Assembly: GCA_965218995.1 (NCBI GenBank)
Contig: CBDCML010000001.1
Coordinates: 376,943-408,942 of the forward strand
Length of the DNA: 32,000 bases
Direction of reading: 5' to 3'
Source of the DNA: Opitutales bacterium
GTDB lineage: Bacteria > Verrucomicrobiota > Verrucomicrobiia > Opitutales > UBA2995
Part shown: positions 2,935-32,000 of the stretch, piece by piece
How the letters are laid out: each line of letters begins with the position of its first letter
Numbering within the stretch: the stretch's first letter is position 1
Made by a program: the position numbers and the translations under genes
The notes under the pieces: model-generated
The model's database searches: none
What the model saw: the letters and a program-made list of their open reading frames with translations, nothing else
What the model was told of the DNA's origin: nothing

Positions 2935-3307
2935 AGCATTCCTAATTCCTAATTCGTGAGCATAGCGAACTTCCCTCCCTTCCTCCGCGACCCTCCAATA
3001 AGAAATAGGATAAATAGCCACAAAAGGCACAAAAACACAAAATTGTAGGAGCGGCTTCGACACGCCGTTGCACGTCTCGCCGCTGCATAGCTTTGCGACG
3101 CACGGTAGCAACTTTGCGACGAACGGTGCAACGGCGTGTCGTCAGGATCATGATCAAGATCACGAATTACCTCTGCATGCCACGCCGTAGGCCTTGGCCT
3201 AGACGGGCGCCTTTGCGCCTTTGGCGCTCTTCCCCTCTGTGCGTCCTCCGGGAGCTTTGCCTGCCTGTGCGTCCGCACGCAGACAGGCGAGATCCAACTC
3301 CTAATAC
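2927..3307. repeat. Mosaic of short interspersed repeat modules
   Basis: Contains a CCTAATT heptamer run (2944-2957), a degenerate GGCACAAA-like run (3024-3044), a GTAGGAGCGG REP-like word (3046-) and a GATCATGATCAAGATCACG word. Modules at 3076-3105 and 3255-3277 recur at 29640-29672 (inverted) and 29408-29430. Confidence 0.6.
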
Positions 3308-3351
3308 TGGTCTTCCCCCGATTTTGTGGACACGAACAGCGTAGCGTATGT

Positions 3352-4544
3352 TCATGTTAGGTTATGGTTTTGATTTTGGAAGTGTTTTTGAAGAAATGCT
3401 TCTGGTGAAAGGTATCCCAGGGTGCTGTGCCTTCGACGTTTGTTATAAAAAGTCTCGAGGTAATCGAAGATGGCCAGGCGGGCCTGCTGCTTGGATTCGA
3501 ACACGCCGTTTTGGGGAAAGCATTCGCTTTTGAGGGAGGCAAAGAAGCTCTCGCAAGCGGCGTTGTCGTAACAGTATCCTAGCGCGCTCATGCTCTGAAT
3601 CCAACCAAAGTCGTTCAATTGCTGCCGCACTTGGTGACTGGTATACTGGCAGCCACGATCTGAATGAAAGAGGGCTTTGTGAAAACCTCCCACTCGATTC
3701 CTGGTCTGGTGAAGGGCTGAAACGACCAGACCGGAGGCCAGGCTCTCGGCCACCTTGTAGCCCTGAATTACGCGGCCGAAGAGGTCCATCACGACCGCTA
3801 GATACAACCAGCCTTGCCGAGTGGGGATGTAGGTGATGTCGCTGACCATGATTTGGCCGGGCCCGGTCGGGTCCGGAGCCTCGGCCAGACGGTTGGGCGC
3901 TGGGAGGCTGCGGGGATCCTGCCGGGTCGTCTTGGGCCGGAAGGGGCTACCCCTACAGGCTTTTAGAGCATTTTGCTTCATCAGCCGGGCCACCCGGTTA
4001 ACCGAGCAGCGAAAACCCCGCTGGTTGAGCTCCACGCTCATGCGAGGACTACCGTAACAGCGGGTGTGCCGGTCGGCATGGATCCGTTTGATTTCGCTCA
4101 GGAGGAGCCGATTTTGGCGGCGGCGCGCTCCCGCCTTACCCCTGCGCCATCGGTAATAACCACTCCTGCTCACAGCCAGCGCCTGACAAAGTTCAACCAC
4201 TCTATAGATTGCCCGCATTTGATCGATCAGCGCATACCCAGCTGCGGGTCCTCGGCCAGTATGCTCGCGGCTTTTTTTAAGATCTCTCGCTGGCGACGCA
4301 GGTAAGCGTTTTCCCGGTTTAGCCGACGGATCTCGCGGGCCATCTCTTCGGGATCGTTCAAGGGGCGGGAAAGTCCCTGCTGGTCGGAGGGGTCCCCGAA
4401 GAGATCCTTGCGCCACTTCCTGAGGCTCCCATCGGAAATCCCCAGTTCACGGGCCACCTGCTTGAGGCTGTTGTTACTGTGCAAATAGAGTTCAACGGCT
4501 CGACGTTTGAACTCCTCATCATAGGTTCTGTGGGTTCTTGGCAT
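3352..4544 (-). CDS. IS3-family transposase OrfAB (orfA 4227-4544, orfB frame 3352-4416, -1 frameshift)
   Basis: OrfA is an HTH protein ('EEFKRRAVELY...LKQVARELGIS...LRKW'). OrfB has an rve/DDE core ('SDITYIPT...LAVVMDLF', 'HSDRGCQYTS', 'ESFFASLKSE'). Confidence 0.9.
4272..4278 (-). promoter_or_regulatory. A7 slippery heptamer for programmed -1 ribosomal frameshift (orfA to orfB)
   Basis: The minus strand reads TTA AAA AAA GCC in the orfA frame. A shift to -1 continues as 'KKSREHTGRG...' in the orfB frame. This is the typical IS3 arrangement. Confidence 0.7.
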
Positions 4545-4731
4545 GTCTAATGATCTCTCTCAGACTGCGCTGTTCGTGTCCACAAAATCGGGGGAGGTTC
4601 ATACCTCATCCGTGCCCAACCACGTACCCTGTCCTGCCGTAGCCTCTTGACCTGCGTAGCATTGCGAAGCACGGTTTGGGCGAAGCGGGATCTGTGGTTA
4701 ATCTCTCTCAGCACTTTCAGCCTTTTTAACC

Positions 4732-6459: not shown

Positions 6460-6978
6460 TTTTAAACGGTTAACGCGCGGATGGAACGTCCGAGTTACAA
6501 AATTTGTCCCGAATCAGGAATTGACCACGGATTACAGTATGCCGTGCAAAGCCACGGGACTCCAGTGGGAGAGTCAACTAAAACCCACCCGGGAACTGGT
6601 CGCTCCACCCGGTACCACCTGGAGGGACGTTCAGAGGTAACGATGAAAGTTCAAGTTCTTCAGGAAAAGGCCCCGAGAGGGGGTCAGGGAGCACCTAGGC
6701 CGTAACATGCGTGAACACCGAGCAGGCCTCGAAAAGGTCAATGCGGACGCCGATCCTGCTGTAATTAGGAGAAGGCTGACACGGCACACCGAACATGCCG
6801 AGTCCGGGAAGAGAGGACGTAATGAGCGACGATAGACGTGTGCTGGTTCGCCGGGGTAGTGGTGACGGCATGGGAGCAAAGGAGTCCCGTAGGAACACGG
6901 GAAGCCCTGGTAAGCAGAGCGTGAAGGCTCAAAGTGGTCTTCCCCCGATTTTGTGGACACGAACAGCGTAGCGTATGT

Positions 6979-8171
6979 TCATGTTAGGTTATGGTTTTGA
7001 TTTTGGAAGTGTTTTTGAAGAAATGCTTCTGGTGAAAGGTATCCCAGGGTGCTGTGCCTTCGACGTTTGTTATAAAAAGTCTCGAGGTAATCGAAGATGG
7101 CCAGGCGGGCCTGCTGCTTGGATTCGAACACGCCGTTTTGGGGAAAGCATTCGCTTTTGAGGGAGGCAAAGAAGCTCTCGCAAGCGGCGTTGTCGTAACA
7201 GTATCCTAGCGCGCTCATGCTCTGAATCCAACCAAAGTCGTTCAATTGCTGCCGCACTTGGTGACTGGTATACTGGCAGCCACGATCTGAATGAAAGAGG
7301 GCTTTGTGAAAACCTCCCACTCGATTCCTGGTCTGGTGAAGGGCTGAAACGACCAGACCGGAGGCCAGGCTCTCGGCCACCTTGTAGCCCTGAATTACGC
7401 GGCCGAAGAGGTCCATCACGACCGCTAGATACAACCAGCCTTGCCGAGTGGGGATGTAGGTGATGTCGCTGACCATGATTTGGCCGGGCCCGGTCGGGTC
7501 CGGAGCCTCGGCCAGACGGTTGGGCGCTGGGAGGCTGCGGGGATCCTGCCGGGTCGTCTTGGGCCGGAAGGGGCTACCCCTACAGGCTTTTAGAGCATTT
7601 TGCTTCATCAGCCGGGCCACCCGGTTAACCGAGCAGCGAAAACCCCGCTGGTTGAGCTCCACGCTCATGCGAGGACTACCGTAACAGCGGGTGTGCCGGT
7701 CGGCATGGATCCGTTTGATTTCGCTCAGGAGGAGCCGATTTTGGCGGCGGCGCGCTCCCGCCTTACCCCTGCGCCATCGGTAATAACCACTCCTGCTCAC
7801 AGCCAGCGCCTGACAAAGTTCAACCACTCTATAGATTGCCCGCATTTGATCGATCAGCGCATACCCAGCTGCGGGTCCTCGGCCAGTATGCTCGCGGCTT
7901 TTTTTAAGATCTCTCGCTGGCGACGCAGGTAAGCGTTTTCCCGGTTTAGCCGACGGATCTCGCGGGCCATCTCTTCGGGATCGTTCAAGGGGCGGGAAAG
8001 TCCCTGCTGGTCGGAGGGGTCCCCGAAGAGATCCTTGCGCCACTTCCTGAGGCTCCCATCGGAAATCCCCAGTTCACGGGCCACCTGCTTGAGGCTGTTG
8101 TTACTGTGCAAATAGAGTTCAACGGCTCGACGTTTGAACTCCTCATCATAGGTTCTGTGGGTTCTTGGCAT
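6979..8171 (-). CDS. IS3-family transposase OrfAB (orfA 7854-8171, orfB frame 6979-8043)
   Basis: Translation identical to copy 1. Confidence 0.9.
7899..7905 (-). promoter_or_regulatory. A7 slippery site (-1 frameshift), IS copy 2
   Basis: Run of 7 T on the + strand at the orfA/orfB overlap, as in copy 1. Confidence 0.7.
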
Positions 8172-8482
8172 GTCTAATGATCTCTCTCAGACTGCGCTGT
8201 TCGTGTCCACAAAATCGGGGGAGGTTCAAACAGGACTCCCGCGAGGGACAGGTCTGGCCTGCGAGGGTGGCGGAGAGGCCCGTAGTAGTGAAGACGCGCG
8301 TAACGAGCGCCGAGCAAAGGGGCCTCAGTTCCAAGGCAACGCGACAAGTGGGGTAAGAGTGGAGAGTGACGAGAGTCTACCACCTCCGGAAAAGCTCTGG
8401 AAACTGCAAGAAACGTTGCATGCCAAAGCGAAGGGAAGTCAAGTAACTTCCCGTGGGCGAAAGCATGAAATCACCTTGGTCC

Positions 8483-8519
<37 letters not shown>

Positions 8520-8708
8520 TGAGCGGGGGTGTGGAAACGGATCCTTTAATGGACACCGCGCCACCCCTCGACTCTACCCGAGAGCACAGAAGGGGGAGAA
8601 TTAGGAATGATTGGCCACAAAAAGCACAAAAGGCACAGGAGCAAAGGTCACGGTCCAGGACCCAGGATCCGTGCCCATCCGTGTAATCCGTGGTTAAATT
8701 ATCAGTGG

Positions 8709-10809: not shown

Positions 10810-11280
10810 GAAAAAAGGCATAATGGGCTGAAAATTCCCTATTTGGTCAGAGCCATGGCAATCAGGGTGAAATATGGGATAAATCCACAATATGGCTTGA
10901 AATTCGGCGGTGATTTCTATCAGGTCGGAACGTTGCAAACGCCATTTTCTCCCCGGTTTTTTGAGGGCGCATCGGTGGGCAATTTGAATGAATGAGGTTA
11001 AGGTTCCCAGTGGCTCATTTTTTGGAATACTACGTGCGAAAGAGACTTCTCACCGTTCTGCTGACTCTTTTTATCCCGGCCCATCTGCCAGCCGTGGTGG
11101 GGCCCCGATCGGAGGCGGTCGATCCGGGACAATATGGACAGGTCTTTTATGTCGATATAGGGTCCGGGGACGACGTGGTTGGGGATGGCTCGAAATCCAA
11201 ACCCTGGGCCAGCATCATTCACGCGCTGGAGCATTCTGGTCTTCCCCCGATTTTGTGGACACGAACAGCGTAGCGTATGT

Positions 11281-12473
11281 TCATGTTAGGTTATGGTTTT
11301 GATTTTGGAAGTGTTTTTGAAGAAATGCTTCTGGTGAAAGGTATCCCAGGGTGCTGTGCCTTCGACGTTTGTTATAAAAAGTCTCGAGGTAATCGAAGAT
11401 GGCCAGGCGGGCCTGCTGCTTGGATTCGAACACGCCGTTTTGGGGAAAGCATTCGCTTTTGAGGGAGGCAAAGAAGCTCTCGCAAGCGGCGTTGTCGTAA
11501 CAGTATCCTAGCGCGCTCATGCTCTGAATCCAACCAAAGTCGTTCAATTGCTGCCGCACTTGGTGACTGGTATACTGGCAGCCACGATCTGAATGAAAGA
11601 GGGCTTTGTGAAAACCTCCCACTCGATTCCTGGTCTGGTGAAGGGCTGAAACGACCAGACCGGAGGCCAGGCTCTCGGCCACCTTGTAGCCCTGAATTAC
11701 GCGGCCGAAGAGGTCCATCACGACCGCTAGATACAACCAGCCTTGCCGAGTGGGGATGTAGGTGATGTCGCTGACCATGATTTGGCCGGGCCCGGTCGGG
11801 TCCGGAGCCTCGGCCAGACGGTTGGGCGCTGGGAGGCTGCGGGGATCCTGCCGGGTCGTCTTGGGCCGGAAGGGGCTACCCCTACAGGCTTTTAGAGCAT
11901 TTTGCTTCATCAGCCGGGCCACCCGGTTAACCGAGCAGCGAAAACCCCGCTGGTTGAGCTCCACGCTCATGCGAGGACTACCGTAACAGCGGGTGTGCCG
12001 GTCGGCATGGATCCGTTTGATTTCGCTCAGGAGGAGCCGATTTTGGCGGCGGCGCGCTCCCGCCTTACCCCTGCGCCATCGGTAATAACCACTCCTGCTC
12101 ACAGCCAGCGCCTGACAAAGTTCAACCACTCTATAGATTGCCCGCATTTGATCGATCAGCGCATACCCAGCTGCGGGTCCTCGGCCAGTATGCTCGCGGC
12201 TTTTTTTAAGATCTCTCGCTGGCGACGCAGGTAAGCGTTTTCCCGGTTTAGCCGACGGATCTCGCGGGCCATCTCTTCGGGATCGTTCAAGGGGCGGGAA
12301 AGTCCCTGCTGGTCGGAGGGGTCCCCGAAGAGATCCTTGCGCCACTTCCTGAGGCTCCCATCGGAAATCCCCAGTTCACGGGCCACCTGCTTGAGGCTGT
12401 TGTTACTGTGCAAATAGAGTTCAACGGCTCGACGTTTGAACTCCTCATCATAGGTTCTGTGGGTTCTTGGCAT
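11281..12473 (-). CDS. IS3-family transposase OrfAB (orfA 12156-12473, orfB frame 11281-12345)
   Basis: Translation identical to copies 1 and 2. Confidence 0.9.
12201..12207 (-). promoter_or_regulatory. A7 slippery site (-1 frameshift), IS copy 3
   Basis: Run of 7 T on the + strand at the orfA/orfB overlap. Confidence 0.7.
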
Positions 12474-13987
12474 GTCTAATGATCTCTCTCAGACTGCGCT
12501 GTTCGTGTCCACAAAATCGGGGGAGGTTCATTCCGGCTTTGCCGCCTCGAACCACCGGGTGGCCGTGCTCGTTTCCAGAGGCCGCTACCTGCAACCGACC
12601 TTTGTATTGCGCCCGCATGTTCACTTGTATGGAGGCTACGCAAGGCCGGGAGGCGAACGCGACGTCTACGCCCACGCTTCGGTATTGGATGGGAATGGGG
12701 ACCGGCGGATCGTTTTCGGGGCCGATCGGGTCAGGCTGGACGGTTTTCATTTGGTGGATGCACGCATTCGCGGGAAAGGGGCCGCCCTACATTGCGACGG
12801 TGTTTCTCCGACCATAACCAATTGTGTCTTTGTCAACAACCGTACCCTGATCCCGGATCCCTGGGACCCGCCTCTCATCCACGAGACCGGAAATGACGGG
12901 GGAGCCGTCATGATCCTGAACGGAGCCAGGCCCCAAATTTCGCACAACTACTTTTTCAACAACTCCACCGAGTGTGGTCGAGGGGGCGCCTTGGCGGTGG
13001 ATATAGGGGCCAATCCGGTGGTGAAGAACAATGTTTTCGCCAACAACCGTGCCGGCCTGGACGATCCCATGCGCAGTAGCGATGGCGGGGCGGTATCCTG
13101 GTTCGATGGGTCGGGCGGGGAATTTTCCGGGAACGTTGTCGTAGCCAATTCCTCCCTGGCCGACAACGACGCGGGCGGGGTCTTCGTGGCGCTGTGGGCC
13201 GCGCCCGTAATTTCGTCCAATGTCTTTGTGGGCAACTACAGCGACGACGATGCGGGCGGGCTCTTTATCGGAGGGCAGGAACACCGTTACGATGCCCCCC
13301 TGGACCCTTATCCGGCCAAAGAACTGTATAACCTCCTGGTCAAGGGCAATGTGTTTGTGGGAAACCGCAACTCCGTGGACAACTCCGGAGCCATGCGGAT
13401 TACCATGGAGTCACGGCTTCATTTTGTCGGAAACGTAATAGCTGAGAACAAAGGCGGCATGTATCTGCAACGTTCCGAGATCATGGCCGAGAACAACACG
13501 GTCTGGCAGGATTGGAAGTTTCTGGAGGACAAGGAATCCCTCGGGCCCAGTTTTTTTTCGGGAAACATGCTCAAAGGACCGGTGGGGCCGATTGAAGCGC
13601 GGGTTAGGTTTGAGGGAAACATGGTGGAGTCTTCGGTGGGGGATGGGAGTCGAATACCCATTGAGGATATATTTCTGGATGATGCTCTAAGCGGCGAAAT
13701 TCTATCCCTTTCCTTCAATTCTCAAACTTACTCGACCGTTCTGGAAACGGCGGAGCCCCTGTCGGCCGATTTGGCCGGCCGCCCCGTGCGCCTGAGTGAA
13801 GATCACGAGGATGGTCAGTGGGGAGTGATCAAGTCTTGCCGCGGCCGGATGATGGAAGTCTGGGGGGCGGTCAAAGCCACTACTGTCGGGGTGAACGCCT
13901 TCGATGTTATCCGCACCTTTACTTTGAAAGAGGACGCGCCCAAAGGTATGGGCGCCGGGTCCCCTTAATCAACCAACCCCGCCTTCC

Positions 13988-22829: not shown

Positions 22830-23109
22830 ATGACCATGCTTTGCTCTCGCTAAGCTCACTATGAACCACCGATTACGCGGATGGACACGGATTTTCAAAA
22901 AATAACGCTACGCTTGATCCTGCTTCACCGGAATTGGTTTTTCAGGAGGGCATGTTTTCCTACTCTCCGTATGAAGACAATGGCGGATAGGAATGTGGAG
23001 GAATGTTTGGCCACATAAAGGACAGAATTCACAAGACGACCACGGATGAGGAATTGACTCTCGCAAAGAACGCGAAGAACGCGGAGATGGGGAGAATTAG
23101 GAATTAGGA

Positions 23110-23153
23110 ATGAAGGCTGAAAATCCGATACAGGCCAAATCTTACGCGTTTGG
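23110..23153 (+). pseudogene. Remnant (first ~15 codons) of a type-A four-helix-bundle gene
   Basis: ATGAAGGCTGAAAATCCGATACAGGCCAAATCTTACGCGTTTGG matches 30539-30582 at about 40 of 44 nt. It is preceded by the same GAATTAGGAATTAGGAATG leader (23094-23112). The homology then stops. Confidence 0.7.
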
Positions 23154-23172
23154 ATTGGGGTATTTTTTAAAA

Positions 23173-23289: not shown

Positions 23290-24683
23290 ATGACGAGAAT
23301 TGATTCCATTCGGGCTCGAACCATTACCCTGCCAGCCGATTACCGTAATGCCACGGTCAGTTTTGCCGGGATGACGGGATCGCTTGTGGCCACCCTGGCC
23401 AGAGGGGATGATGGATCCATTGAGACCGGTTACGGCTTCGGGTCCATCGGCCGTTACGCCCAGACTGAAATGATCCTGGAACGCTTTGCCCCGCGCATTT
23501 TGCGAGCGGATCCTTCTGCATACGACCGGGATGGATTCCCGGATCCCGTTCGGTTGAATCGGCTCATGCGCCGCAACGAAAAGCAAGGGGGTCATGGCGA
23601 GCGATCGGTCGCCATCGGAGCGATCGACATGGCGGCCTGGGATCTCTACGCCAAACTCCATAAGAAACCGCTCTTTCTCTGCTTGGCGGAGCGTTTTAAC
23701 GGGGCCCAATTCGATCCGGCGGTCGAGTTGTATGCGGCGGGGGGATACTATTATGATGAAGGCGGACCGACCCGGTTGCGGCGGGAGTTGGAGGATTATC
23801 TCGAAGCGGGATTTCGGTCGATCAAGATCAAAATTGGCGGCGCATCCCTGGAAAGGGATCTGCAACGAATAGAAACCGCCATAGCCGCGGTGGGTTCTCG
23901 GGTTTTGTAGCGGTAGACGCGAACGGGCGCTTCAGCGGGGAGGAGGCGCTGGAATGGGGCAGGGCCCTGGAGGATTTGAACCTGCGTTGGTATGAGGAGC
24001 CGGTCGATCCACTGGATTTGGAGGCTTACAAACAATTGGGTTCAGCTTATGGGCCGCCCTTGGCAACCGGGGAGAACCTCTTCTCCCTGCAGGAGGTAAA
24101 AAACCTGATCCGTTACGGGGGGTTGCGTCCGGATCGGGATATTCTGCAGATGGATCCGGGCCTGGCTTATGGGGTCCCGGAATATTTGGACATCCTCCAT
24201 GCCTTGGAAACTGCCGGTTGGTCGCGGAGAAGCTGTTTCCCACATGGAGGGAATTTGTTCAACCTTCACATCGCCCAAGGCCTGCAGATCGGCGGAACGG
24301 AAGTCTATCCCGGAGTTTTTGCCCCCCTCGGCGGATTTGGGGAGTCGGTTGAAATCGAGAATGGACGGGCCTCCGCTCCCGACTTTTTCCAGATCGATGC
24401 GGTTTGGGAAAGTTTCCGTTGGATCAAGCGCCATTACACGGATCTCGGGTTTTCCGCAAGGGCCGACATTTTGGAGAACAACGCGGGTCACAATTATAAT
24501 CGCACCCAGCGGGAGGCGGCCCTTCGTTGGTTCAATCAGTGGTTGAAGGGACGGGTGGAAACCATACGGGAGCCGAGGATCGATTTGTTTACCCCGGAAG
24601 AGCTTTGGGCGACCCCCGGCGGACAGGTTTTGGAGGTAGAAGGCGCCAGGGGGCGCCAATTAGGAATTAGGAATTGGGAATGA
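23290..24683 (+). pseudogene. Enolase-superfamily (mandelate racemase/muconate lactonizing type) gene with internal frameshift and foreign 3' end
   Basis: Part 1 (23290-23910) ends '...IETAIAAVGSRVL*'. The family continues in another frame from 23910: 'AVDANGRFSGEEALEW...WYEEPVDP...ATGENLFS...PHGGN...VEIENGRASAPD'. After ~24385 the ORF switches to an alpha/beta-hydrolase-like C-terminus ('AGHNY...AALRWFNQWLKG') and ends in the heptamer repeat (LGIRNWE*). Confidence 0.7.
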
Positions 24684-24686
24684 AAA

Positions 24687-24742
24687 GGCACAAAGGCACA
24701 AAGGCACAAAGGCACAAAGGCACAAAGGCACAAAGGCACAAA
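24687..24742 (+). repeat. (GGCACAAA)7 octamer tandem array
   Basis: Seven perfect units, immediately upstream of the type-B four-helix-bundle remnant. Confidence 0.95.
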
Positions 24743-24823
24743 GTAAGTGGGGTTAAAGCATATCGAGATTCGATCGTTTGGCAAAAGGGGATCGACCTGG
24801 TGACAATAATTTATGAACTGAGC
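24743..24823 (+). pseudogene. Remnant (27 codons) of a type-B four-helix-bundle gene, start codon lost
   Basis: 'VSGVKAYRDSIVWQKGIDLVTIIYELS' compares with the intact 'MSGVRTYRDLIVWQKGIDFVTKIYGLT' at 31722. ATG is replaced by GTA, and homology ends at about 24823. Confidence 0.75.
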
Positions 24824-24874
24824 GAGGACCGGCTGCAGGCAAAGCGGCAAGTACCATAATTGATGATGAACCCA

Positions 24875-25830: not shown

Positions 25831-28740
25831 TTACTCTAAACTATTACCAATTGTAACGGATACCGGCGCGTACATAGGAGCCGTAGAATTCGCGCGGCGC
25901 AGGCGTTGGGTGCCCCGACCGTATGTGCGAATCTTTTCCGCCTCGAATATGTTCTGCCAGTTCACGTAGATGGTGTAATTATCACTGATGGCGTAACTGG
26001 CCTGAACGTCCGTATAGTCACGTGTGTCATCCCAGCGGTCCTCGTCTGCCGCGCCTGACAGTTCACGCACGCTTTCGTCCTGGTAGTTGTAGGCGATCCT
26101 AGCTTGAAGTTTGTGCTTTTGGTAGTACAATGCGACATTGTAGATGTTCTCCGGTTGACGAAAGAAAGGCAGGTCGTCCTCCAAGCGGTCAAAAATCGTG
26201 ACATCCGAACTGATGAAGGTGGCGTTGACATCCAGCCCGAAACCATCGAGGAAACCTTCCTCTAGAAAGCTGCTGAACGGAATCTGCGCGGCGAGCTCGA
26301 AACCGGTAATGGATCCTTTATCGGCGTTCCTGAACTGGACCCTTGACAAGGTGTCAAAGCCAATACCATGCCGGGTTACATTTCTCAGGCTTTCCGAGAA
26401 TGGATAAATGGGGTTGTCGATTTCCTTTTGGAAAATGCCGGCTGAGAGCAGGCCCCCTGATTCGAGATAATGCTCGATACCGAGGTCCCAGTTGATAGAC
26501 TCGTAGGGAGACAACTCCGGATTTCCCAGCTCAACTTCCCCGATAAATGGGAAGTTGGGATCCAATTGGTCCTCGGGATCCAGTTCTTCGTACTCGAAAA
26601 CATTGTTGGGTGAGGCCTTTTCATAGGGAGGACGTCCAATGGTTCCGGTGAAGGTTGCTCTCAGAAGGGTGTTGGCGCCGATTTCATACCGGAGTTGCAA
26701 GTTGGGAAGGAAATTACTGTAATAGAAATCGCCTTCCGTTTCGACCAGGTTAAAGACATCTCCTTGGGCGGTTTCCCCTTCTTGGAATTCGAATGATTTC
26801 AGACTGGCATCGGTATCTTCCCAGCGGACTCCGGCCAGGACGGTCAATTTCTCCGAGGCCTGGATAGTGGCCATGAAGTAAAGGGCCAGGATATCTTCCG
26901 AGATGTCGTAGTCGTCTTCCACCGAGTTGGAGGCGGATTCAACCGGGTCCACTTCAAAGGAGCTGCGGTTGGCATTGAGGTAGTCCAGGGCGGTCAACAC
27001 GTCCAGAGTGGAAGGGTAGTGGTAGCGCCCGCCATACATGGGGAATCCCGAATTGGGGGCGGGAGGGGCGATCTGAACCATGTTGAAATCCCCGACCGGG
27101 CGGGTGGAGTTGTCGTCCACGAAGCGATCCCGTGAGGTAATTTTTGCCCCGGACTTGAAAGTAGTCCGTCCGCCCAGGAAATCATCGTTTTCCCACTCGA
27201 AATCCAGCCGAGGGGCATAGGTTTCTTCCTTGGAATAGGAATCGTCCTCGCGGAAGCGACGCAGGTTGAATTCGTCTTGTTCCTGGGTAAGAAAACCTTT
27301 GTCATCAAAATTCGGGTAGAGACCACTGAACTCGTAGAAGAAGTGGTTGGGAGGAAGGAAGTTCTCATTTCCAGTGCGGAACTGAACGGTTTTGATGAAA
27401 GGGACCTCTTCTTCGGCCACCGAATAGGTGACGTCTCCGGAAACGCGCATATTATCGTATTGACGGTGCCCACCCACCGAGATGTTGAACAGGCCCTGGT
27501 CAATTTCCCGGCGGAAGTCCCGTTGCTCCATGCGCATCCGGTTGAAGTCCGCCGCAGTGGGGGAGAGGAACATGGGATCCCGGCGGGTATCCATGATCAT
27601 TTCCTGTTGACGCTCACTTTCGTCGAACTGGTTGAAGATACCGCGAATAAAGAACTCGGAATCAGGATCCGGGAGGAATTCGATGTTATAATTGAATCCC
27701 ATCCTGGTCCGTTCTCCTTCGGCGGGTTGGAGTTCAAAGGTTTCAACGAAGTAGCGGCCATCCTCATTCCCATAATTGGCCTGAATCTCATGGGAGGTAA
27801 AAGGCCGTTCCGAATAGTGGGCGGAAAGGGAGATCCCCACGGTGCCGTCGTTGAAGGTATCCCCCCAGGTGATATCCCCGTCGAAGAGGGTTCCGCTGCG
27901 ATCGCTGTTTTCGCCCAATTCAACTTTACCGAATACGAATCTGTCCGGTTGATCGAAAGCGCTGACGCTTTTGATATTAATGGTTCCACCGAGGGCATTG
28001 CCGTCCATATCGGGGGTTACCGCCTTGATGACTTCGATCTGATAGATCTGACCGGATCCCACCACGTCCAAGGGCATGGCCCGACCTTCCCGTCCACCTG
28101 CGGCGGGGGCGGCCACGATGGCGCCATTGAAGGTCACGTTGTTGAAATTCGGCTCCAGACCCCGGATGCTGACGAAGCGGCCTTCACCGGCGTCCACGTC
28201 CAGGCTGACGCCGGGAATTCGGGCCAGAGCTTCCGCCACATTCCGGTCGGGCAGGGATCCCACCGAGTCGGCGGAAATGATATCGAGGATGTTGTTGGCA
28301 GTCCGTTTCTGTTGCAGGGCCAGGGCACGGGCTTCACGGTAACCTTCGACGCGGAAGGCGGGGAGTTCCACAAATTCCAAACCAACTTCAACGGACAAAG
28401 TGGCCGATCCGGTTTCGGGAACGTTAACCGATTCGCTGATGGGGCTGTATCCGATATAACGAACTTGCACGGTATAGGTCCCGGCGGGAAGATCGGGAAT
28501 GCGATAACTGCCATCGCGGTTGGTAATGGCAATGCGGCCTTCTCCCAGGACGACCACTTCAACCCCGGGCAGATATCGTCCCGTATTGGCGTCGATAATA
28601 AAGCCTTCGATGTCTCCGGCTTTCAACCCGGGTGTGGCCAGGGCCAGCATCAGGGCCAGGACGGGCAAACCGAAACGGTGGCGATAAAAACGGGCGAAGA
28701 ACCCCGAGGAATTGTTTCTGAGAAGCTGATTCGTGTTCAT
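25831..28740 (-). CDS. TonB-dependent receptor with N-terminal carboxypeptidase-regulatory-like domain; probable frameshift near the 3' end
   Basis: 'GFIIDANTGRYLPGVEVVV...DGSYRIPDLPAGTYTV' (CarbopepD_reg-like). Plug motif 'DRNVAEALARIPGVS'. The canonical C-terminus '...REFYGSYVRAGIRYNW*' is encoded in another frame and ends at 25844. Confidence 0.85.
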   Translation of the reverse strand: MNTNQLLRNNSSGFFARFYRHRFGLPVLALMLALATPGLKAGDIEGFIIDANTGRYLPGVEVVVLGEGRIAITNRDGSYRIPDLPAGTYTVQVRYIGYSPISESVNVPETGSATLSVEVGLEFVELPAFRVEGYREARALALQQKRTANNILDIISADSVGSLPDRNVAEALARIPGVSLDVDAGEGRFVSIRGLEPNFNNVTFNGAIVAAPAAGGREGRAMPLDVVGSGQIYQIEVIKAVTPDMDGNALGGTINIKSVSAFDQPDRFVFGKVELGENSDRSGTLFDGDITWGDTFNDGTVGISLSAHYSERPFTSHEIQANYGNEDGRYFVETFELQPAEGERTRMGFNYNIEFLPDPDSEFFIRGIFNQFDESERQQEMIMDTRRDPMFLSPTAADFNRMRMEQRDFRREIDQGLFNISVGGHRQYDNMRVSGDVTYSVAEEEVPFIKTVQFRTGNENFLPPNHFFYEFSGLYPNFDDKGFLTQEQDEFNLRRFREDDSYSKEETYAPRLDFEWENDDFLGGRTTFKSGAKITSRDRFVDDNSTRPVGDFNMVQIAPPAPNSGFPMYGGRYHYPSTLDVLTALDYLNANRSSFEVDPVESASNSVEDDYDISEDILALYFMATIQASEKLTVLAGVRWEDTDASLKSFEFQEGETAQGDVFNLVETEGDFYYSNFLPNLQLRYEIGANTLLRATFTGTIGRPPYEKASPNNVFEYEELDPEDQLDPNFPFIGEVELGNPELSPYESINWDLGIEHYLESGGLLSAGIFQKEIDNPIYPFSESLRNVTRHGIGFDTLSRVQFRNADKGSITGFELAAQIPFSSFLEEGFLDGFGLDVNATFISSDVTIFDRLEDDLPFFRQPENIYNVALYYQKHKLQARIAYNYQDESVRELSGAADEDRWDDTRDYTDVQASYAISDNYTIYVNWQNIFEAEKIRTYGRGTQRLRRANSTAPMYAPVSVTIGNSLE

Positions 28741-29826: not shown

Positions 29827-29882
29827 CCCTTCTCCCTTCTCCCTTCTCCCTTCTCCCCCATTCCCCATTCCTAATTCCTAAT
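29827..29882 (+). repeat. Heptamer tandem array with motif drift (CCCTTCT x4, CCCCCAT, TCCCCAT, TCCTAAT x2)
   Basis: Eight consecutive 7-bp units. The array ends in the CCTAATT-CGCGCC..GGCGC module just upstream of the leuD ATG. Confidence 0.8.
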
Positions 29883-29905
29883 TCGCGCCCTCGGCGCCTC
29901 CCCCC

Positions 29906-30529
29906 ATGCCCTTAGAACCCATAACCCTAGTGTCGGGTCGCGCCCTTTATGTTCCCGGGGACGACATCGATACCGATCAGATCATTCCGGCCCGTTTCCT
30001 CAGGTGTATTACCTTCGACGGTCTGGGTGAATTCCTCTTTTACGACGTGCGCAAGGAGGGAAAGGGAAGGCACCGGCCCCATCCCCTGGACGACCCTCGG
30101 TTTGCCGGAGCCAGCATCATGATCAGCGGGAATAATTTCGGCTGTGGAAGCTCCCGGGAACATGCCCCCCAAGCCATCTCCAAAGCGGGTTTTGCCGCTA
30201 TCATTGCCGAGGGATTTGGCGAAATATTCTTCGGAAACAGCGCCACCCTCGGGCTTCCTTGCCTCCGGGCTTCCCGGCAGGATATTCAATCCATCGCCGC
30301 CGCCGTGCAAGCGGACCCCTCCATCGAGATAACCGCCGATGTGGTCAACGGGGAAATTCGCTTTGGGGGCCGGATCATTCCCTGTCAACTGCCCGAGGCG
30401 GCCCGTGCGGGGTTCATTGCCGGCACTTGGGACCCGATTGCCGAGCTTCTGCAGGGCGACTCCGCCATCCATGCCATGGCCCGGTCCCTTCCCTACAACG
30501 ACCCCGCTGGGGTCGGAATTAGGAATTAG
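29906..30529 (+). CDS. leuD: 3-isopropylmalate dehydratase small subunit
   Basis: 'DDIDTDQIIPARFL', 'GNNFGCGSSREHAPQAI' and 'GFGEIFFGN' are classic LeuD/aconitase swivel-domain blocks. The last codons (G-I-R-N) and the stop lie in the AATTAGG heptamer array. Confidence 0.85.
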   Translation: MPLEPITLVSGRALYVPGDDIDTDQIIPARFLRCITFDGLGEFLFYDVRKEGKGRHRPHPLDDPRFAGASIMISGNNFGCGSSREHAPQAISKAGFAAIIAEGFGEIFFGNSATLGLPCLRASRQDIQSIAAAVQADPSIEITADVVNGEIRFGGRIIPCQLPEAARAGFIAGTWDPIAELLQGDSAIHAMARSLPYNDPAGVGIRN

Positions 30530-30544
30530 GAATTAGGAATGAAG
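30515..30544 (+). repeat. Left arm of the four-helix-bundle cassette: (AATTAGG)n leader containing the ATG
   Basis: GGAATTAGGAATTAGGAATTAGGAATGAAG. Positions 30529-30544 are the perfect reverse complement of 30919-30934. Confidence 0.9.
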
Positions 30545-30916
30545 GTTGAGAATCCAATACAGGCCAAATCTTACGCGTTTGCTTTGCGGATGGTTAAGCT
30601 GTATCGGTATCTCTGTGCTGAGAAAAATGAATACTTGGTTTCCAAGCAGGTCGCGCGTAGTGGCACATCGATCGGCGCTAACGTAGAAGAAGCCATTGGG
30701 GGACAATCGAAAAAGGATTTCCTTTCCCAGATGGGCATCGCCTACAAGGAAGCCCGAGAGACGCATTACTGGCTTCGGCTGCTTCGCGATTCCAATATTC
30801 TGGACGCCAAACAGGCCAAATCCATTATGGAAGAATGCGAAGAGCTTTTGAAACTTTCCGGCACCATCATCCGAACCACAAAACCCAAAGTAAAGGAAGG
30901 CGCCGACGGCGCCTAA
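30539..30916 (+). CDS. Four-helix-bundle protein (23S rRNA intervening-sequence protein / Avd-like family), type A
   Basis: 125 aa. 'SKQVARSGTSIGANVEEAIGGQSKKDFLSQMGIAYKEARETHYWLRLL' matches the hallmark of the TIGR02436/PF05635 family (from memory). Confidence 0.85.
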   Translation: MKVENPIQAKSYAFALRMVKLYRYLCAEKNEYLVSKQVARSGTSIGANVEEAIGGQSKKDFLSQMGIAYKEARETHYWLRLLRDSNILDAKQAKSIMEECEELLKLSGTIIRTTKPKVKEGADGA

Positions 30917-30957
30917 TTCTTCATTCCTAATTCCTGATTGGCGCGCCTTAGCGCGCC
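30913..30957 (+). repeat. Right arm of the cassette (CTTCATTCCTAATTCC) plus GC hairpin GGCGCGC-CTTA-GCGCGCC
   Basis: 16-nt perfect complement of the left arm at 30919-30934. A 7-bp GC stem at 30940-30946 / 30951-30957 has no following T-run. Confidence 0.85.
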
Positions 30958-30964
30958 TCGCGCC

Positions 30965-31534
30965 ATGATTCAAATTATCGAAGGTTCGGGGATCTTCATC
31001 TACCCCCTCGGGTTGTGTTCCCTTTTGGGCATTTTCGTGATTTTTGAGCGGGGCATATCTTTGAGAATCGCCAACATTTTGCCCAAATCCCTGGTGGATA
31101 AGGTAATTGTCGGGCAAATCGACGATCCCCCGGAAAAGGAATCCGTCCTGGGACGCATTCTTGAATTTTTTAACCAACGTTCCCAGGATGCCGATAAAAT
31201 CCGGGCATTCACCAACCTCGAAGTCAACCGGATGGAACGGGGCCTGGTCATCCTGGAAATTGTCACCGGGGCGGCTCCCCTTTTGGGCCTGTTGGGAACG
31301 GTCACCGGTTTGGTCCAGGTATTTGCCAATATGTCCTTTGAAACCGGCGTGCCCGAACAAACTGCCTTCATCTCCGGTGTGGCCCTGGCCCTGACCACCA
31401 CCATGATTGGCCTTTCCGTGGCTATTCCCAGCTTGGTGGCCTACAATATCTATCAACGCCGTATCGATACCTATACGGTTCAACTCGATGCCATGATCGA
31501 ACGACTCCTTTCCCTCAACCAACCCAATTCCTGA
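30965..31534 (+). CDS. MotA/TolQ/ExbB proton-channel family protein
   Basis: 'IFIYPLGLCSLLGIFVIFER' and 'APLLGLLGTVTGLVQVF...ALTTTMIGLSVAIPSLVAYN' are typical ExbB/TolQ blocks. The ATG at 30965 is preferred over the upstream TTG at 30938, which lies in the repeat. Confidence 0.78.
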   Translation: MIQIIEGSGIFIYPLGLCSLLGIFVIFERGISLRIANILPKSLVDKVIVGQIDDPPEKESVLGRILEFFNQRSQDADKIRAFTNLEVNRMERGLVILEIVTGAAPLLGLLGTVTGLVQVFANMSFETGVPEQTAFISGVALALTTTMIGLSVAIPSLVAYNIYQRRIDTYTVQLDAMIERLLSLNQPNS

Positions 31535-31537
31535 TTA

Positions 31538-31721
31538 GGCACAAAGGCACAAAGGCACAAAGGCACAAAGGCACAAAGGCACAAAGGCACAAAGGCACAA
31601 AGGCACAAAGGCACAAAGGCACAAAGGCACAAAGGCACAAAGGCACAAAGGCACAAAGGCACAAAGGCACAAAGGCACAAAGGCACAAAGGCACAAAGGC
31701 ACAAAGGCACAAAGGCACAAA
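31538..31721 (+). repeat. (GGCACAAA)23 perfect octamer tandem array
   Basis: 184 bp, equal to 23 uninterrupted units. It starts 3 nt after the ExbB-family stop and ends exactly at the ATG of the next gene. Confidence 0.97.
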
Positions 31722-32000
31722 ATGAGTGGGGTCAGAACATATCGAGATTTGATCGTTTGGCAAAAGGGAATCGACTTCGTCACAAAAATCTATGGACTGA
31801 CCCGCAATTATCCTGCCTCAGAAGTCTACGGCTTAACTTCACAAATCCGCCGCTGCTCTGTTTCGATTCCAAGCAACGTTGCAGAAGGTTACGGACGAAG
31901 GTCCACTCAAGAATACATTCGGTTCCTTCAAATCGCGTCCGGCTCCTTATTTGAACTTCAAACCCAGTTGCAGATTTCCGCCAATCTTGATTTCATCGGG
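31722..32000 (+). CDS. Four-helix-bundle protein (23S rRNA IVS / Avd-like family), type B; 3' end outside the window
   Basis: Not in the supplied ORF track because it is open-ended. My translation is 'MSGVRTYRDLIVWQKGIDFVTKIYGLTRNYPASEVYGLTSQIRRCSVSIPSNVAEGYGRRSTQEYIRFLQIASGSLFELQTQLQISANLDFIG', the canonical TIGR02436 pattern. Confidence 0.85.
   Translation, partial: MSGVRTYRDLIVWQKGIDFVTKIYGLTRNYPASEVYGLTSQIRRCSVSIPSNVAEGYGRRSTQEYIRFLQIASGSLFELQTQLQISANLDFIG

Follow-up and report, generated by a model that had tools for sequence, protein, structure and literature searches.

Why should a small gene lie between two inverted arrays of short tandem words, wedged between two ordinary bacterial cistrons? 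The question is raised by a stretch of 32,000 nucleotides (nt) from an Opitutales bacterium, called the window below, in which a gene for a putative four-helix-bundle protein, here named fhb1, separates leuD from exbB. The fhb1 unit is repeated with the same ends, is missing at the corresponding sites of relatives and decays into remnants and into forms without an open reading frame (ORF). The same packaging, with matching arm words, accompanies the gene family across phyla, nearly always behind a co-directional gene. We consider that the fhb1 unit is probably a cassette of the intervening sequence (IVS) type residing outside rRNA, in the transcribed leuD-exbB spacer.

Anatomy of the fhb1 cassette

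A preliminary description of the window, made from its letters, had placed a gene of 125 amino acids (aa) between inverted arms, followed by a GC hairpin, between leuD and an ExbB-family gene. Arms (30529-30544 and 30919-30934) and hairpin were all recovered, with PF00694 upstream and PF01618 downstream. The elements are as follows.

29906-30529, + strand: leuD, host gene (PF00694), whose last 9 codons and TAG stop come from the inserted element
30500-30514, + strand: left outer GC hairpin GACCCCGCTGGGGTC, from the sequence and local fold, with a counterpart GGCGCCAAGGGGCGCC at the paralogue
30515-30544, + strand: left arm, (GGAATTA)3.7 (30515-30540) then ATGAAG, from Tandem Repeats Finder and inverted repeats I2-I4, paired in the minimum-free-energy fold
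30539-30916, + strand: fhb1, ATG start, 125 aa, four-helix-bundle protein of PF05635/TIGR02436 (Pfam E = 1.2e-25, TIGR02436 E = 3e-29, PDB 2RLD E = 7e-28), TAA stop at 30914-30916
30899-30913, + strand: GC palindrome GGCGCCGACGGCGCC within the 3' end of the ORF, encoding the C-terminal tail
30917-30939, + strand: right arm TTCTTCATTCCTAATTCCTGATT, complement of the left arm, from repeat finding, inverted repeats and fold
30940-30957, + strand: right outer GC palindrome GGCGCGCCTTAGCGCGCC, without a T-run and therefore not a typical intrinsic terminator
30965-31534, + strand: exbB, host gene (PF01618), with its ATG at 30965, 7 nt past the element

The exact-complement part of the left arm, GGAATTAGGAATGAAG (30529-30544), lies at the end of the (GGAATTA)3.7 array, and CTTCATTCCTAATTCC at 30919-30934, 2 nt past the TAA stop, is its exact reverse complement. 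Around fhb1 the inverted repeats are perfect over 16 nt and near-perfect over 21-24 nt, and arm complementarity reaches 22 base pairs (bp) with one G:U pair allowed. Folding of 30500-30964 as RNA, a check suggested in the preliminary description, gives a minimum-free-energy structure with a predicted closing stem of 22 bp that includes the ATG (z = -5.0 compared to dinucleotide shuffles).

The left arm holds both the leuD stop codon (TAG, 30527-30529, inside the heptamer array) and the fhb1 start codon. The array had been proposed as the source of the last leuD codons and stop, and this agrees with the C-terminus of the protein, which is ...LPYNDPAGVGIRN in the window compared to ...LPYV in relatives, the additional codons being the small left hairpin plus heptamers. 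At the other end of the unit, the C-terminal tail of fhb1 is where alignments to most homologues end (~94% query coverage).

Protein family and distribution of fhb1

The assignment of the gene to the four-helix-bundle (rRNA-IVS/Avd-like) family, already made in the preliminary description, is supported by two profiles above their curated cut-offs (PF05635, 90.2 bits for a cut-off of 33.8; TIGR02436, 101.4 bits for a cut-off of 24). Residues 4-115 match the solved structure 2RLD (E = 7e-28), and a four-helix-bundle fold is predicted on this basis. The second gene of the family in the window, fhb2, scores 115.9 bits with PF05635 (E = 1.3e-33) and 132 bits with TIGR02436, and exceeds the NF008911 cut-off. 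Immediately behind a tRNA-Ser gene, 19 kb downstream of fhb1, lies a paralogue (L082:10001-10378; 91% aa and 93.6% nt identity). The ratio of nonsynonymous to synonymous substitution rates (dN/dS) between the two copies is ~0.25, indicating that the fhb1 protein is under purifying selection.

The GC content of fhb1 is 49% vs 55% for the window, and in all cases checked the ORF of the family lies 6-16 points under the host locus. The identity of fhb1 to proteins named from Kapaibacterium, Thermodesulfobacteriota and Gammaproteobacteria is 75-76%, whereas leuD reaches at most 57% beyond Verrucomicrobiota, a difference which indicates horizontal spread. The exact fhb1 protein is also encoded on the 470-kb ENA metagenome contig L001, which the relatives of leuD assign to Opitutales (Verrucomicrobiota). 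A scan of viral contigs with fhb2 returned no relatives.

Paired arms accompany the gene family

AATTAGG/CCTAATT arrays are common in the window's genome, and leuD itself is flanked by inverted arrays (I1, I5). An inverted pair alone is therefore weak evidence here, and outside support was needed. The part of the arms that does not belong to the repeat, ATGAAG/CTTCAT, is also complementary, and CTTCATTCC is found once in the window.

Outside support came from a metagenome scan with fhb1, which returned 80 loci (proteins 53-77% identical, DNA of 27-55% GC), 58 of them analysed. In 53 of the 58, the ORF was preceded by two or more AATTANN words and followed by two or more NNTAATT words. The words met include AATTAGG, AATTACG, AATTAAG, AATTATG, AATTAGT and others, and the right arm often contains the stop codon. 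For each ORF, the longest exact inverted repeat on its two sides was determined. Its median length was 12 nt for the homologues vs 7 nt for neighbouring ORFs of the same loci (Mann-Whitney p = 1e-12); it was at least 11 nt long for 40/56 homologues and for a single one of 58 neighbouring ORFs. In addition, left and right arms were complementary over a median of 12 nt within a locus, compared to 8 nt when arms were combined between loci (p = 1e-9), showing that the variable positions of the words co-vary between the two arms around a constant AATTA core.

The packaging extends further. Two genomes of 60-62% GC (L171 and L172, protein 80% identical) again carry AATTAGG/CCTAATT arms, with outer GC hairpins of different sequence. 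More distant members, plasmid-borne in cultured strains, use different words: Nostoc punctiforme PCC 73102 has (GTCGGAG)n...(CTCCGAC)n and Treponema saccharophilum GGAAAGN. Whether the other family members of the genome have paired arms had been proposed as a check on the preliminary description; such arms were present at the paralogue, at fhb2 and at homologues in other phyla.

One fhb1-type locus (L138:860-1400) has GTTCAGT/GTTCAAT words upstream and ACTGAAC/CAACTGA downstream in place of AATTANN. These words resemble the TAACTGA heptamers repeated between genes in Beggiatoaceae, Cyanobacteria and Bacteroidetes (PMC4679880).

Sites without the gene in relatives

The synteny leuD-exbB-exbD is common in Opitutales, with mostly short spacers. 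In a relative whose exbB is 87% identical (L003), both spacers are of ordinary sequence, with 42 nt between leuD and exbB and ~10-30 nt between exbB and exbD. In L002, the closest relative (95% identity in exbB), the spacers measure 445 nt (leuD-exbB) and 415 nt (exbB-exbD) and contain no ORF. These two spacers (6595-7036 and 7607-8018) carry purine-rich words at the left and their complements at the right, and their predicted folds pair one end with the other (z = -2.3 and -7.7, respectively). Such mosaics may be decayed cassettes or the substrate that received cassettes. The right end of the exbB-exbD spacer of L002, a CCTAATT array plus a GC hairpin, seems orthologous to that of the window.

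When sites were compared in this way, as the preliminary description had asked, the gene was not met here between ordinary flanks: spacers are short in L003 and most Opitutales, and L002 has ORF-less mosaics. No target-site duplication was visible between the filled site and the empty L003 site, where the spacers are too diverged for alignment.

Copies, remnants and ORF-less derivatives

The paralogue behind tRNA-Ser is packaged as fhb1 is. Its left end reads GGCGCCAAGGGGCGCC-(AATTAGG)3-AATGAAG and its right end TAATTCTTCATT(CCTAATT)3-GGCGCGCCCCCGGCGCGCC, and similarity between the two copies ends at the outer GC palindromes. Its RNA is predicted to fold with a closing stem of ~42 bp (z = -7.8). 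Three truncated copies were also identified:

23094-23157, + strand: remnant of an fhb1 copy, its first 16 codons behind a heptamer array (tblastn, 87.5% identity)
24658-24830, + strand: remnant of an fhb2 copy, ~29 codons with a heptamer and an octamer array (tblastn, 65.5% identity)
L082:8930-9100: fhb2 stump

The window, L001 and L082 joined make up 59.6 kb with 3 intact PF05635 copies and 3 remnants. This density is unusual, since an iterative profile search detected no PF05635 ORF in ~700 kb covering 80 leuD loci of relatives.

The same 59.6 kb contain 9 AATTAGG arrays on the + strand and 16 CCTAATT arrays (-), many of which do not adjoin an fhb gene. A GGCGCC-N3-4-GGCGCC palindrome precedes 9/9 AATTAGG(+) arrays, and all of them end in GGAATG. 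Beyond this common module, three arrays continue into fhb1 or its remnant, one into an octamer array and an fhb2 remnant, and five into non-coding sequence, four of these five entering the same palindromic core. The five non-coding elements are ORF-less relatives of the cassette. All three AGGCACAA(+) arrays stand before fhb2 or an fhb2 remnant, so that each subfamily keeps its own words in the window's genome.

The ORF-less palindromic family is located at L001:12472-13070, at L082:8013-8560 and at 33002, 37398, 44703 and 47237 (joined 59.6-kb coordinates). It shares with the fhb1 cassette the GGCGCCnnnGGCGCC palindrome, (AATTAGG)n and GGAATG. The place of the ORF is taken by arrays of words nested in one another (CACGGATGAA, GGGAGAG) and by a hairpin, GGAGGGCGGG...CCCGCC. 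leuD, too, is flanked by such an ORF-less element, represented by its right half:

29827-29897, + strand: pyrimidine-word arrays (CCCTTCT, CCCCATT, ATTCCTA) plus GC hairpin GCGCCCTCGGCGC, directly 5' of the leuD start (inverted repeats I1, I5)

Variation in copy number was seen elsewhere. L171 and L172 are near-identical genomes (3.96-3.97 Mb) of a single sample, ERZ25069326. At one shared locus, with a glycosyltransferase gene on one side and an EamA gene on the other, they carry 2 vs 3 tandem fhb1-type cassettes (L171:3480-4520 and L172:3300-5160), and the ORF fragments sandwiched between arrays point to recent recombination among arrays. A gut-metagenome locus (L151) carries a tandem duplicate of the cassette.

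A second cassette between exbB and exbD

The gene order, completed with L001, is leuD, fhb1, exbB, fhb2, exbD, malate synthase. The second cassette is made of the following elements:

31537-31721, + strand: (AGGCACAA)23 array, left arm of the second cassette, from tandem repeat finding, with its complement CCTTTGTGCCTTTGTGCC past the stop at L001:11630-11648
31722-32000, + strand, running off the window: fhb2, second PF05635 gene, 123 aa (Pfam), between exbB and exbD, complete at L001:11192-11563

fhb2 and its relatives have octamer AGGCANNN arms, unlike the heptamers of fhb1. These octamers were found at fhb2-type genes in Opitutales, in Ferruginibacter and in one further taxon, as AGGCACAA, AGGCACGG or AGGCAGAA with the complements downstream. 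The contexts are an Opitutales relative, the leuA/leuB interval of Ferruginibacter and, in the third taxon, a histidine kinase/response regulator pair. The Ferruginibacter cassette (metagenome-assembled genome L165:811-4495) is located in a leucine operon, between leuA and leuB, and the window cassette directly 3' of leuD. Both leucine-gene placements are probably coincidental; both operons are highly transcribed and biosynthetic.

The octamer array at 31537-31721 is open in the fhb2 frame and would read (HKGTKAQR)n. In a relative, the gene-caller annotation of an fhb2 homologue (P0125, L164:6001-6624) is 207 aa long, and over-long N- or C-terminal extensions may be common annotation artefacts in the PF05635 family.

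The window and L001 represent one sequence in two versions. Their length differences are only array copy numbers (at 24658, 24736 and 31585: 1 AATTAGG unit, ~10 CACAAAGG units and 1 further octamer unit) and two single-base indels. The window is without a single C at 23898 and at 25892 relative to L001, and one of these gaps splits a 513-aa gene of the enolase superfamily (MR_MLE) into two ORFs. The differences could come from strain variation or from long-read assembly error at 12x coverage.

Orientation, transcription and predicted pairing

Across the metagenome loci, the cassette ORF runs in the same direction as its upstream neighbour in 44/45 cases and as its downstream neighbour in 32/39, with cassette-to-neighbour gaps of median ~46 nt, which is essentially the length of an arm. 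No sigma-70-like site was found on the + strand within or before the window cassette. Together with co-directional placement, this indicates that the cassette is promoterless and positioned for read-through. The GC palindromes of the window cassette are without T-run, and no intrinsic terminator was found there. Predicted end-to-end pairs have a median of 30 in 47 cassettes vs 8.5 in control windows. Rfam searches at gathering thresholds gave no known RNA family at the cassette and no rRNA in the window or L082.

One cassette lies in antisense to cas2 and cas1, with GTAAAAA heptamer arrays, on plasmid pANACY.01 of Anabaena cylindrica PCC 7122 (L168, 155585-155932). PF05635 was flagged as CRISPR-associated in earlier surveys, which this placement may explain.

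Other mobile sequences in the window

Three copies of an IS3-family insertion sequence (IS), with rve and HTH_21 domains and 99-100% identical, are located within 9 kb (3304-4580, 6931-8207 and 11233-12510). The second one separates two blocks of group II intron domains recognised by Rfam, D1-D4 at 6563-6710 and D5-D6 at 8483-8577 (+), ~1.8 kb apart. It encodes a 354-aa transposase (6979-8043, -), and no reverse-transcriptase ORF was seen. The group II intron seems to be disrupted, or its ORF replaced, by the IS.

A model for the cassette and its alternatives

The preliminary description had interpreted the locus as an IVS-like self-contained cassette. Armed paralogue, empty sites and cross-phylum arms all support this reading, and the following scheme can be proposed. 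A compact promoterless unit, formed by a GC hairpin, a tandem-word array, a PF05635 ORF, the complementary array and a second GC hairpin, would have inserted in sense into the transcribed leuD-exbB spacer, an octamer-armed second cassette lying between exbB and exbD. Read-through from the host operon would transcribe it. The arms are predicted to pair into a double-stranded RNA stem of 22-42 bp that would hide the start codon. The preliminary description had suggested that a stem of this sort could serve to excise the cassette transcript or to stabilise it. RNase III might then cut this stem, by analogy with the rRNA IVSs of Coxiella, Leptospira and Salmonella. The cut would free the cassette RNA and part the flanking cistrons, which could make the insertion tolerable to the host. 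The cassette may spread as a selfish element, with the pentameric four-helix-bundle protein possibly binding the repeated words. Arm words tend to follow the protein subfamily, which suggests that the protein may recognise the arrays.

Several observations weigh against this scheme. The link between arm word and subfamily is not strict: GTTCAGT words accompany the fhb1-type gene of L138, and TATTTGA words an fhb2-type copy, the second gene of L131, so that a strict pairing of arm word and protein subfamily is weakened. Antisense placement relative to the neighbours occurs in a few cassettes (L109, and L168 between cas2 and cas1). Arm mismatches are 23 of G:U type vs 21 of A:C type, and this absence of an excess signalling sense-RNA pairing makes complementarity kept at the DNA level (hairpin/cruciform, arm conversion) equally compatible as RNA. 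In diverged genomes, orthologous cassettes persist at one locus, such as the interval separating the genes for a membrane-fusion protein and a resistance-nodulation-division (RND) pump; this persistence would also fit a domesticated gene. RNase III cleavage at the arms is extrapolated from rRNA IVSs. Finally, no target-site duplication was seen and no recombinase was found with cassettes at the examined loci, and mobility is thus inferred from distribution alone.

An alternative is an element mobile or recombining at the DNA level, the arrays acting as terminal inverted repeats or single-stranded DNA hairpins for a trans-acting transposase or recombinase, or as homologous-recombination sites, with RNA pairing incidental. 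We hold this for a possible but clearly less probable explanation. It accounts for a multicopy unit with identical ends, for empty sites in relatives, for ORF-less derivatives which resemble miniature inverted-repeat transposable elements (MITEs) and share the GC palindrome + AATTAGG module, for the tandem cassettes of L171/L172 with ORF fragments between arrays and the duplication in L151, and for the symmetric mismatches. The three IS3 copies also show that the region tolerates transposition. However, neither a cassette-associated transposase or recombinase at the examined loci nor a target-site duplication was seen, and tandem arrays of variable length do not resemble terminal inverted repeats of the classical kind. 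DNA transposition alone does not explain the 44/45 sense orientation or the arms embracing start and stop codons, although selection for expressing a promoterless ORF could yield the orientation bias.

An ordinary, vertically inherited chromosomal gene, not mobile, whose hairpin serves translational or stability control, appears unlikely. Purifying selection on the protein, its strong conservation across phyla, the orthologous cassettes at one locus in several diverged genomes and the ATG sequestered in a predicted stem would all be expected of it. It fits poorly with the absence of the gene at the locus in relatives, the closest one included, with the contrast between ~700 kb of related leuD loci and the copies and remnants in 59.6 kb, with identical-arm paralogues in unrelated contexts, with the lower GC and with the much higher cross-phylum identity of fhb1 than of leuD.

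Chance juxtaposition of genome-specific simple-sequence repeats would be in keeping with the abundance of AATTAGG arrays on both strands, many away from fhb genes, and with the inverted arrays that flank leuD, and is nevertheless highly improbable: like arms surround homologues in genomes of 27-62% GC, control genes are without arms, and two subfamilies in one genome keep different arm words. Control genes, cross-locus permutation and carriers of other GC content refute it. Least credible of all is an Avd accessory gene of a diversity-generating retroelement (DGR), suggested by the common fold family and weak fhb2 matches to PF22296 (bAvd) and NF033474, and rejected because no reverse transcriptase (RVT domain) or template-repeat/variable-repeat (TR/VR) pair exists among 20 ORFs scanned or in repeat searches, the NF033474 score of fhb2 is 28.6 for a cut-off of 80 with no match for fhb1, and the sole retroelement trace is the disrupted group II intron RNA ~22 kb away.

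The IVS-type reading of the fhb1 unit could be generalised, in a speculative way that we regard as rather doubtful. PF05635 genes would be the cargo of phylum-spanning mobile IVS-type cassettes, whose subfamily-specific arrays would be recognised by the pentameric protein, perhaps with a reverse transcriptase as for Avd. Insertion would be in sense and into transcribed spacers of any kind, be it from cistron to cistron, behind tRNA genes or in rRNA helices. Classical IVSs, ORF-bearing or ORF-less, and at least some intergenic heptamer and octamer repeats would then be their insertions and decay products, including repeats similar to the short tandemly repeated repetitive (STRR) sequences, TAACTGA-like repeats and the Opitutales mosaics. 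Cyanobacterial STRRs are intergenic tandem heptamer repeats.

The nature of rRNA IVSs and of their conserved ORF has been debated for more than 30 years (transposon relic, mobile element or neutral), and to our knowledge the question was studied only within rRNA genes. PF05635 'four helix bundle' genes are annotated by the thousand with no function given. The literature searched yielded no account of PF05635 cassettes that lie outside rRNA and have inverted arrays, which does not prove that none exists. The packaged unit is found here in mRNA spacers and behind tRNA genes, in Verrucomicrobiota, Bacteroidota, Cyanobacteria and Spirochaetes. The rRNA IVS would become one landing site among those of a general cassette, and a very large gene family without known function gains a testable context. 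Cultured carriers, including N. punctiforme PCC 73102 with gene NPUN_RS34315 and T. saccharophilum with gene AABB03_RS11730, offer tractable systems for RNase III processing, arm binding and mobility. A possible source is also suggested for enigmatic intergenic heptamer repeats. Finally, since cassettes rewrite the 3' ends of host genes, as for leuD, and split operons, annotation and operon prediction are affected.

Comparison with known systems

Like integron gene cassettes, the fhb1 unit is a promoterless single ORF, co-directional with its surroundings and probably transcribed from upstream. Unlike them, it has repeats bracketing the ORF on both sides and no single 3' attC, and its cargo always belongs to one gene family. 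No integron integrase was present among the scanned ORFs, the only integrase-like domains being the rve domains of the IS3 transposases.

With the DGR protein Avd the cassettes share a homologous four-helix-bundle fold (PMC10053308), and fhb2 has the weak PF22296 and NF033474 matches. There is no nearby reverse transcriptase or TR/VR pair, and flanking inverted arrays are not a described feature of DGRs.

The resemblance to MITEs and to repetitive extragenic palindromes and bacterial interspersed mosaic elements (REP/BIME) lies in short, multicopy, intergenic, hairpin-forming units with inverted ends and abundant ORF-less derivatives. In contrast to these elements, the cassette ends are arrays of 7-8 nt words of variable copy number, and the full-length cassette carries a conserved non-transposase gene, strongly favours the sense orientation behind a co-directional gene and has no target-site duplication that could be seen.

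The TAACTGA repeats are tandem heptamers that also end just before start codons and are patchily shared between distant phyla (PMC4679880). Unlike for the cassettes, a single indirect repeat is reported for them, and the paper contains none of the terms '23S', 'four helix' and 'intervening' (PMC4679880). The connection, made through the GTTCAGT/ACTGAAC words of L138, is a lead only.

The IVS of Coxiella burnetii is 428-444 nt long, is located in helix 45 of the 23S rRNA and carries a PF05635 ORF (S23p). It has 2-4 tandem GACAGAT heptamers directly before the ATG, their number differing among strains, a 28-bp terminal stem inside which RNase III cleaves, and a GC content under that of the genome (PMC4990558). 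Old proposals reviewed in the same study see IVSs as transposition relics or mobile elements (PMC4990558). The cassettes differ from rRNA IVSs in location, since they lie between cistrons (leuD|exbB, exbB|exbD) or, for the paralogue, behind a tRNA gene, and not inside a 23S or 16S rRNA helix. They also differ in having several copies, remnants and ORF-less derivatives per genome. Compared to the Coxiella IVS, the words are AATTAGG and AGGCACAA instead of GACAGAT, and outer GC palindromes are present. Purifying selection acts on the fhb1 protein, whereas for the ORF of Coxiella decay and a probable lack of translation are reported (PMC4990558).

The likenesses bear on the architecture itself and go further than the preliminary description had noted. 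As in the Coxiella IVS, heptamers stand directly before the ATG in variable copy number, which for the cassette differs between the two contig versions. Distribution is sporadic and composition atypical, with empty sites and a GC content 6-16 points lower, and the predicted closing stems of 22 bp in the window cassette and ~42 bp in the paralogue reach the ~20 bp or more that are typical of IVSs. A total length of ~430-480 nt and, probably, expression by host read-through are further traits shared with the ORF-bearing 23S IVSs of Coxiella and Leptospira, in which a PF05635 ORF likewise fills the loop of a long terminal-inverted-repeat stem.

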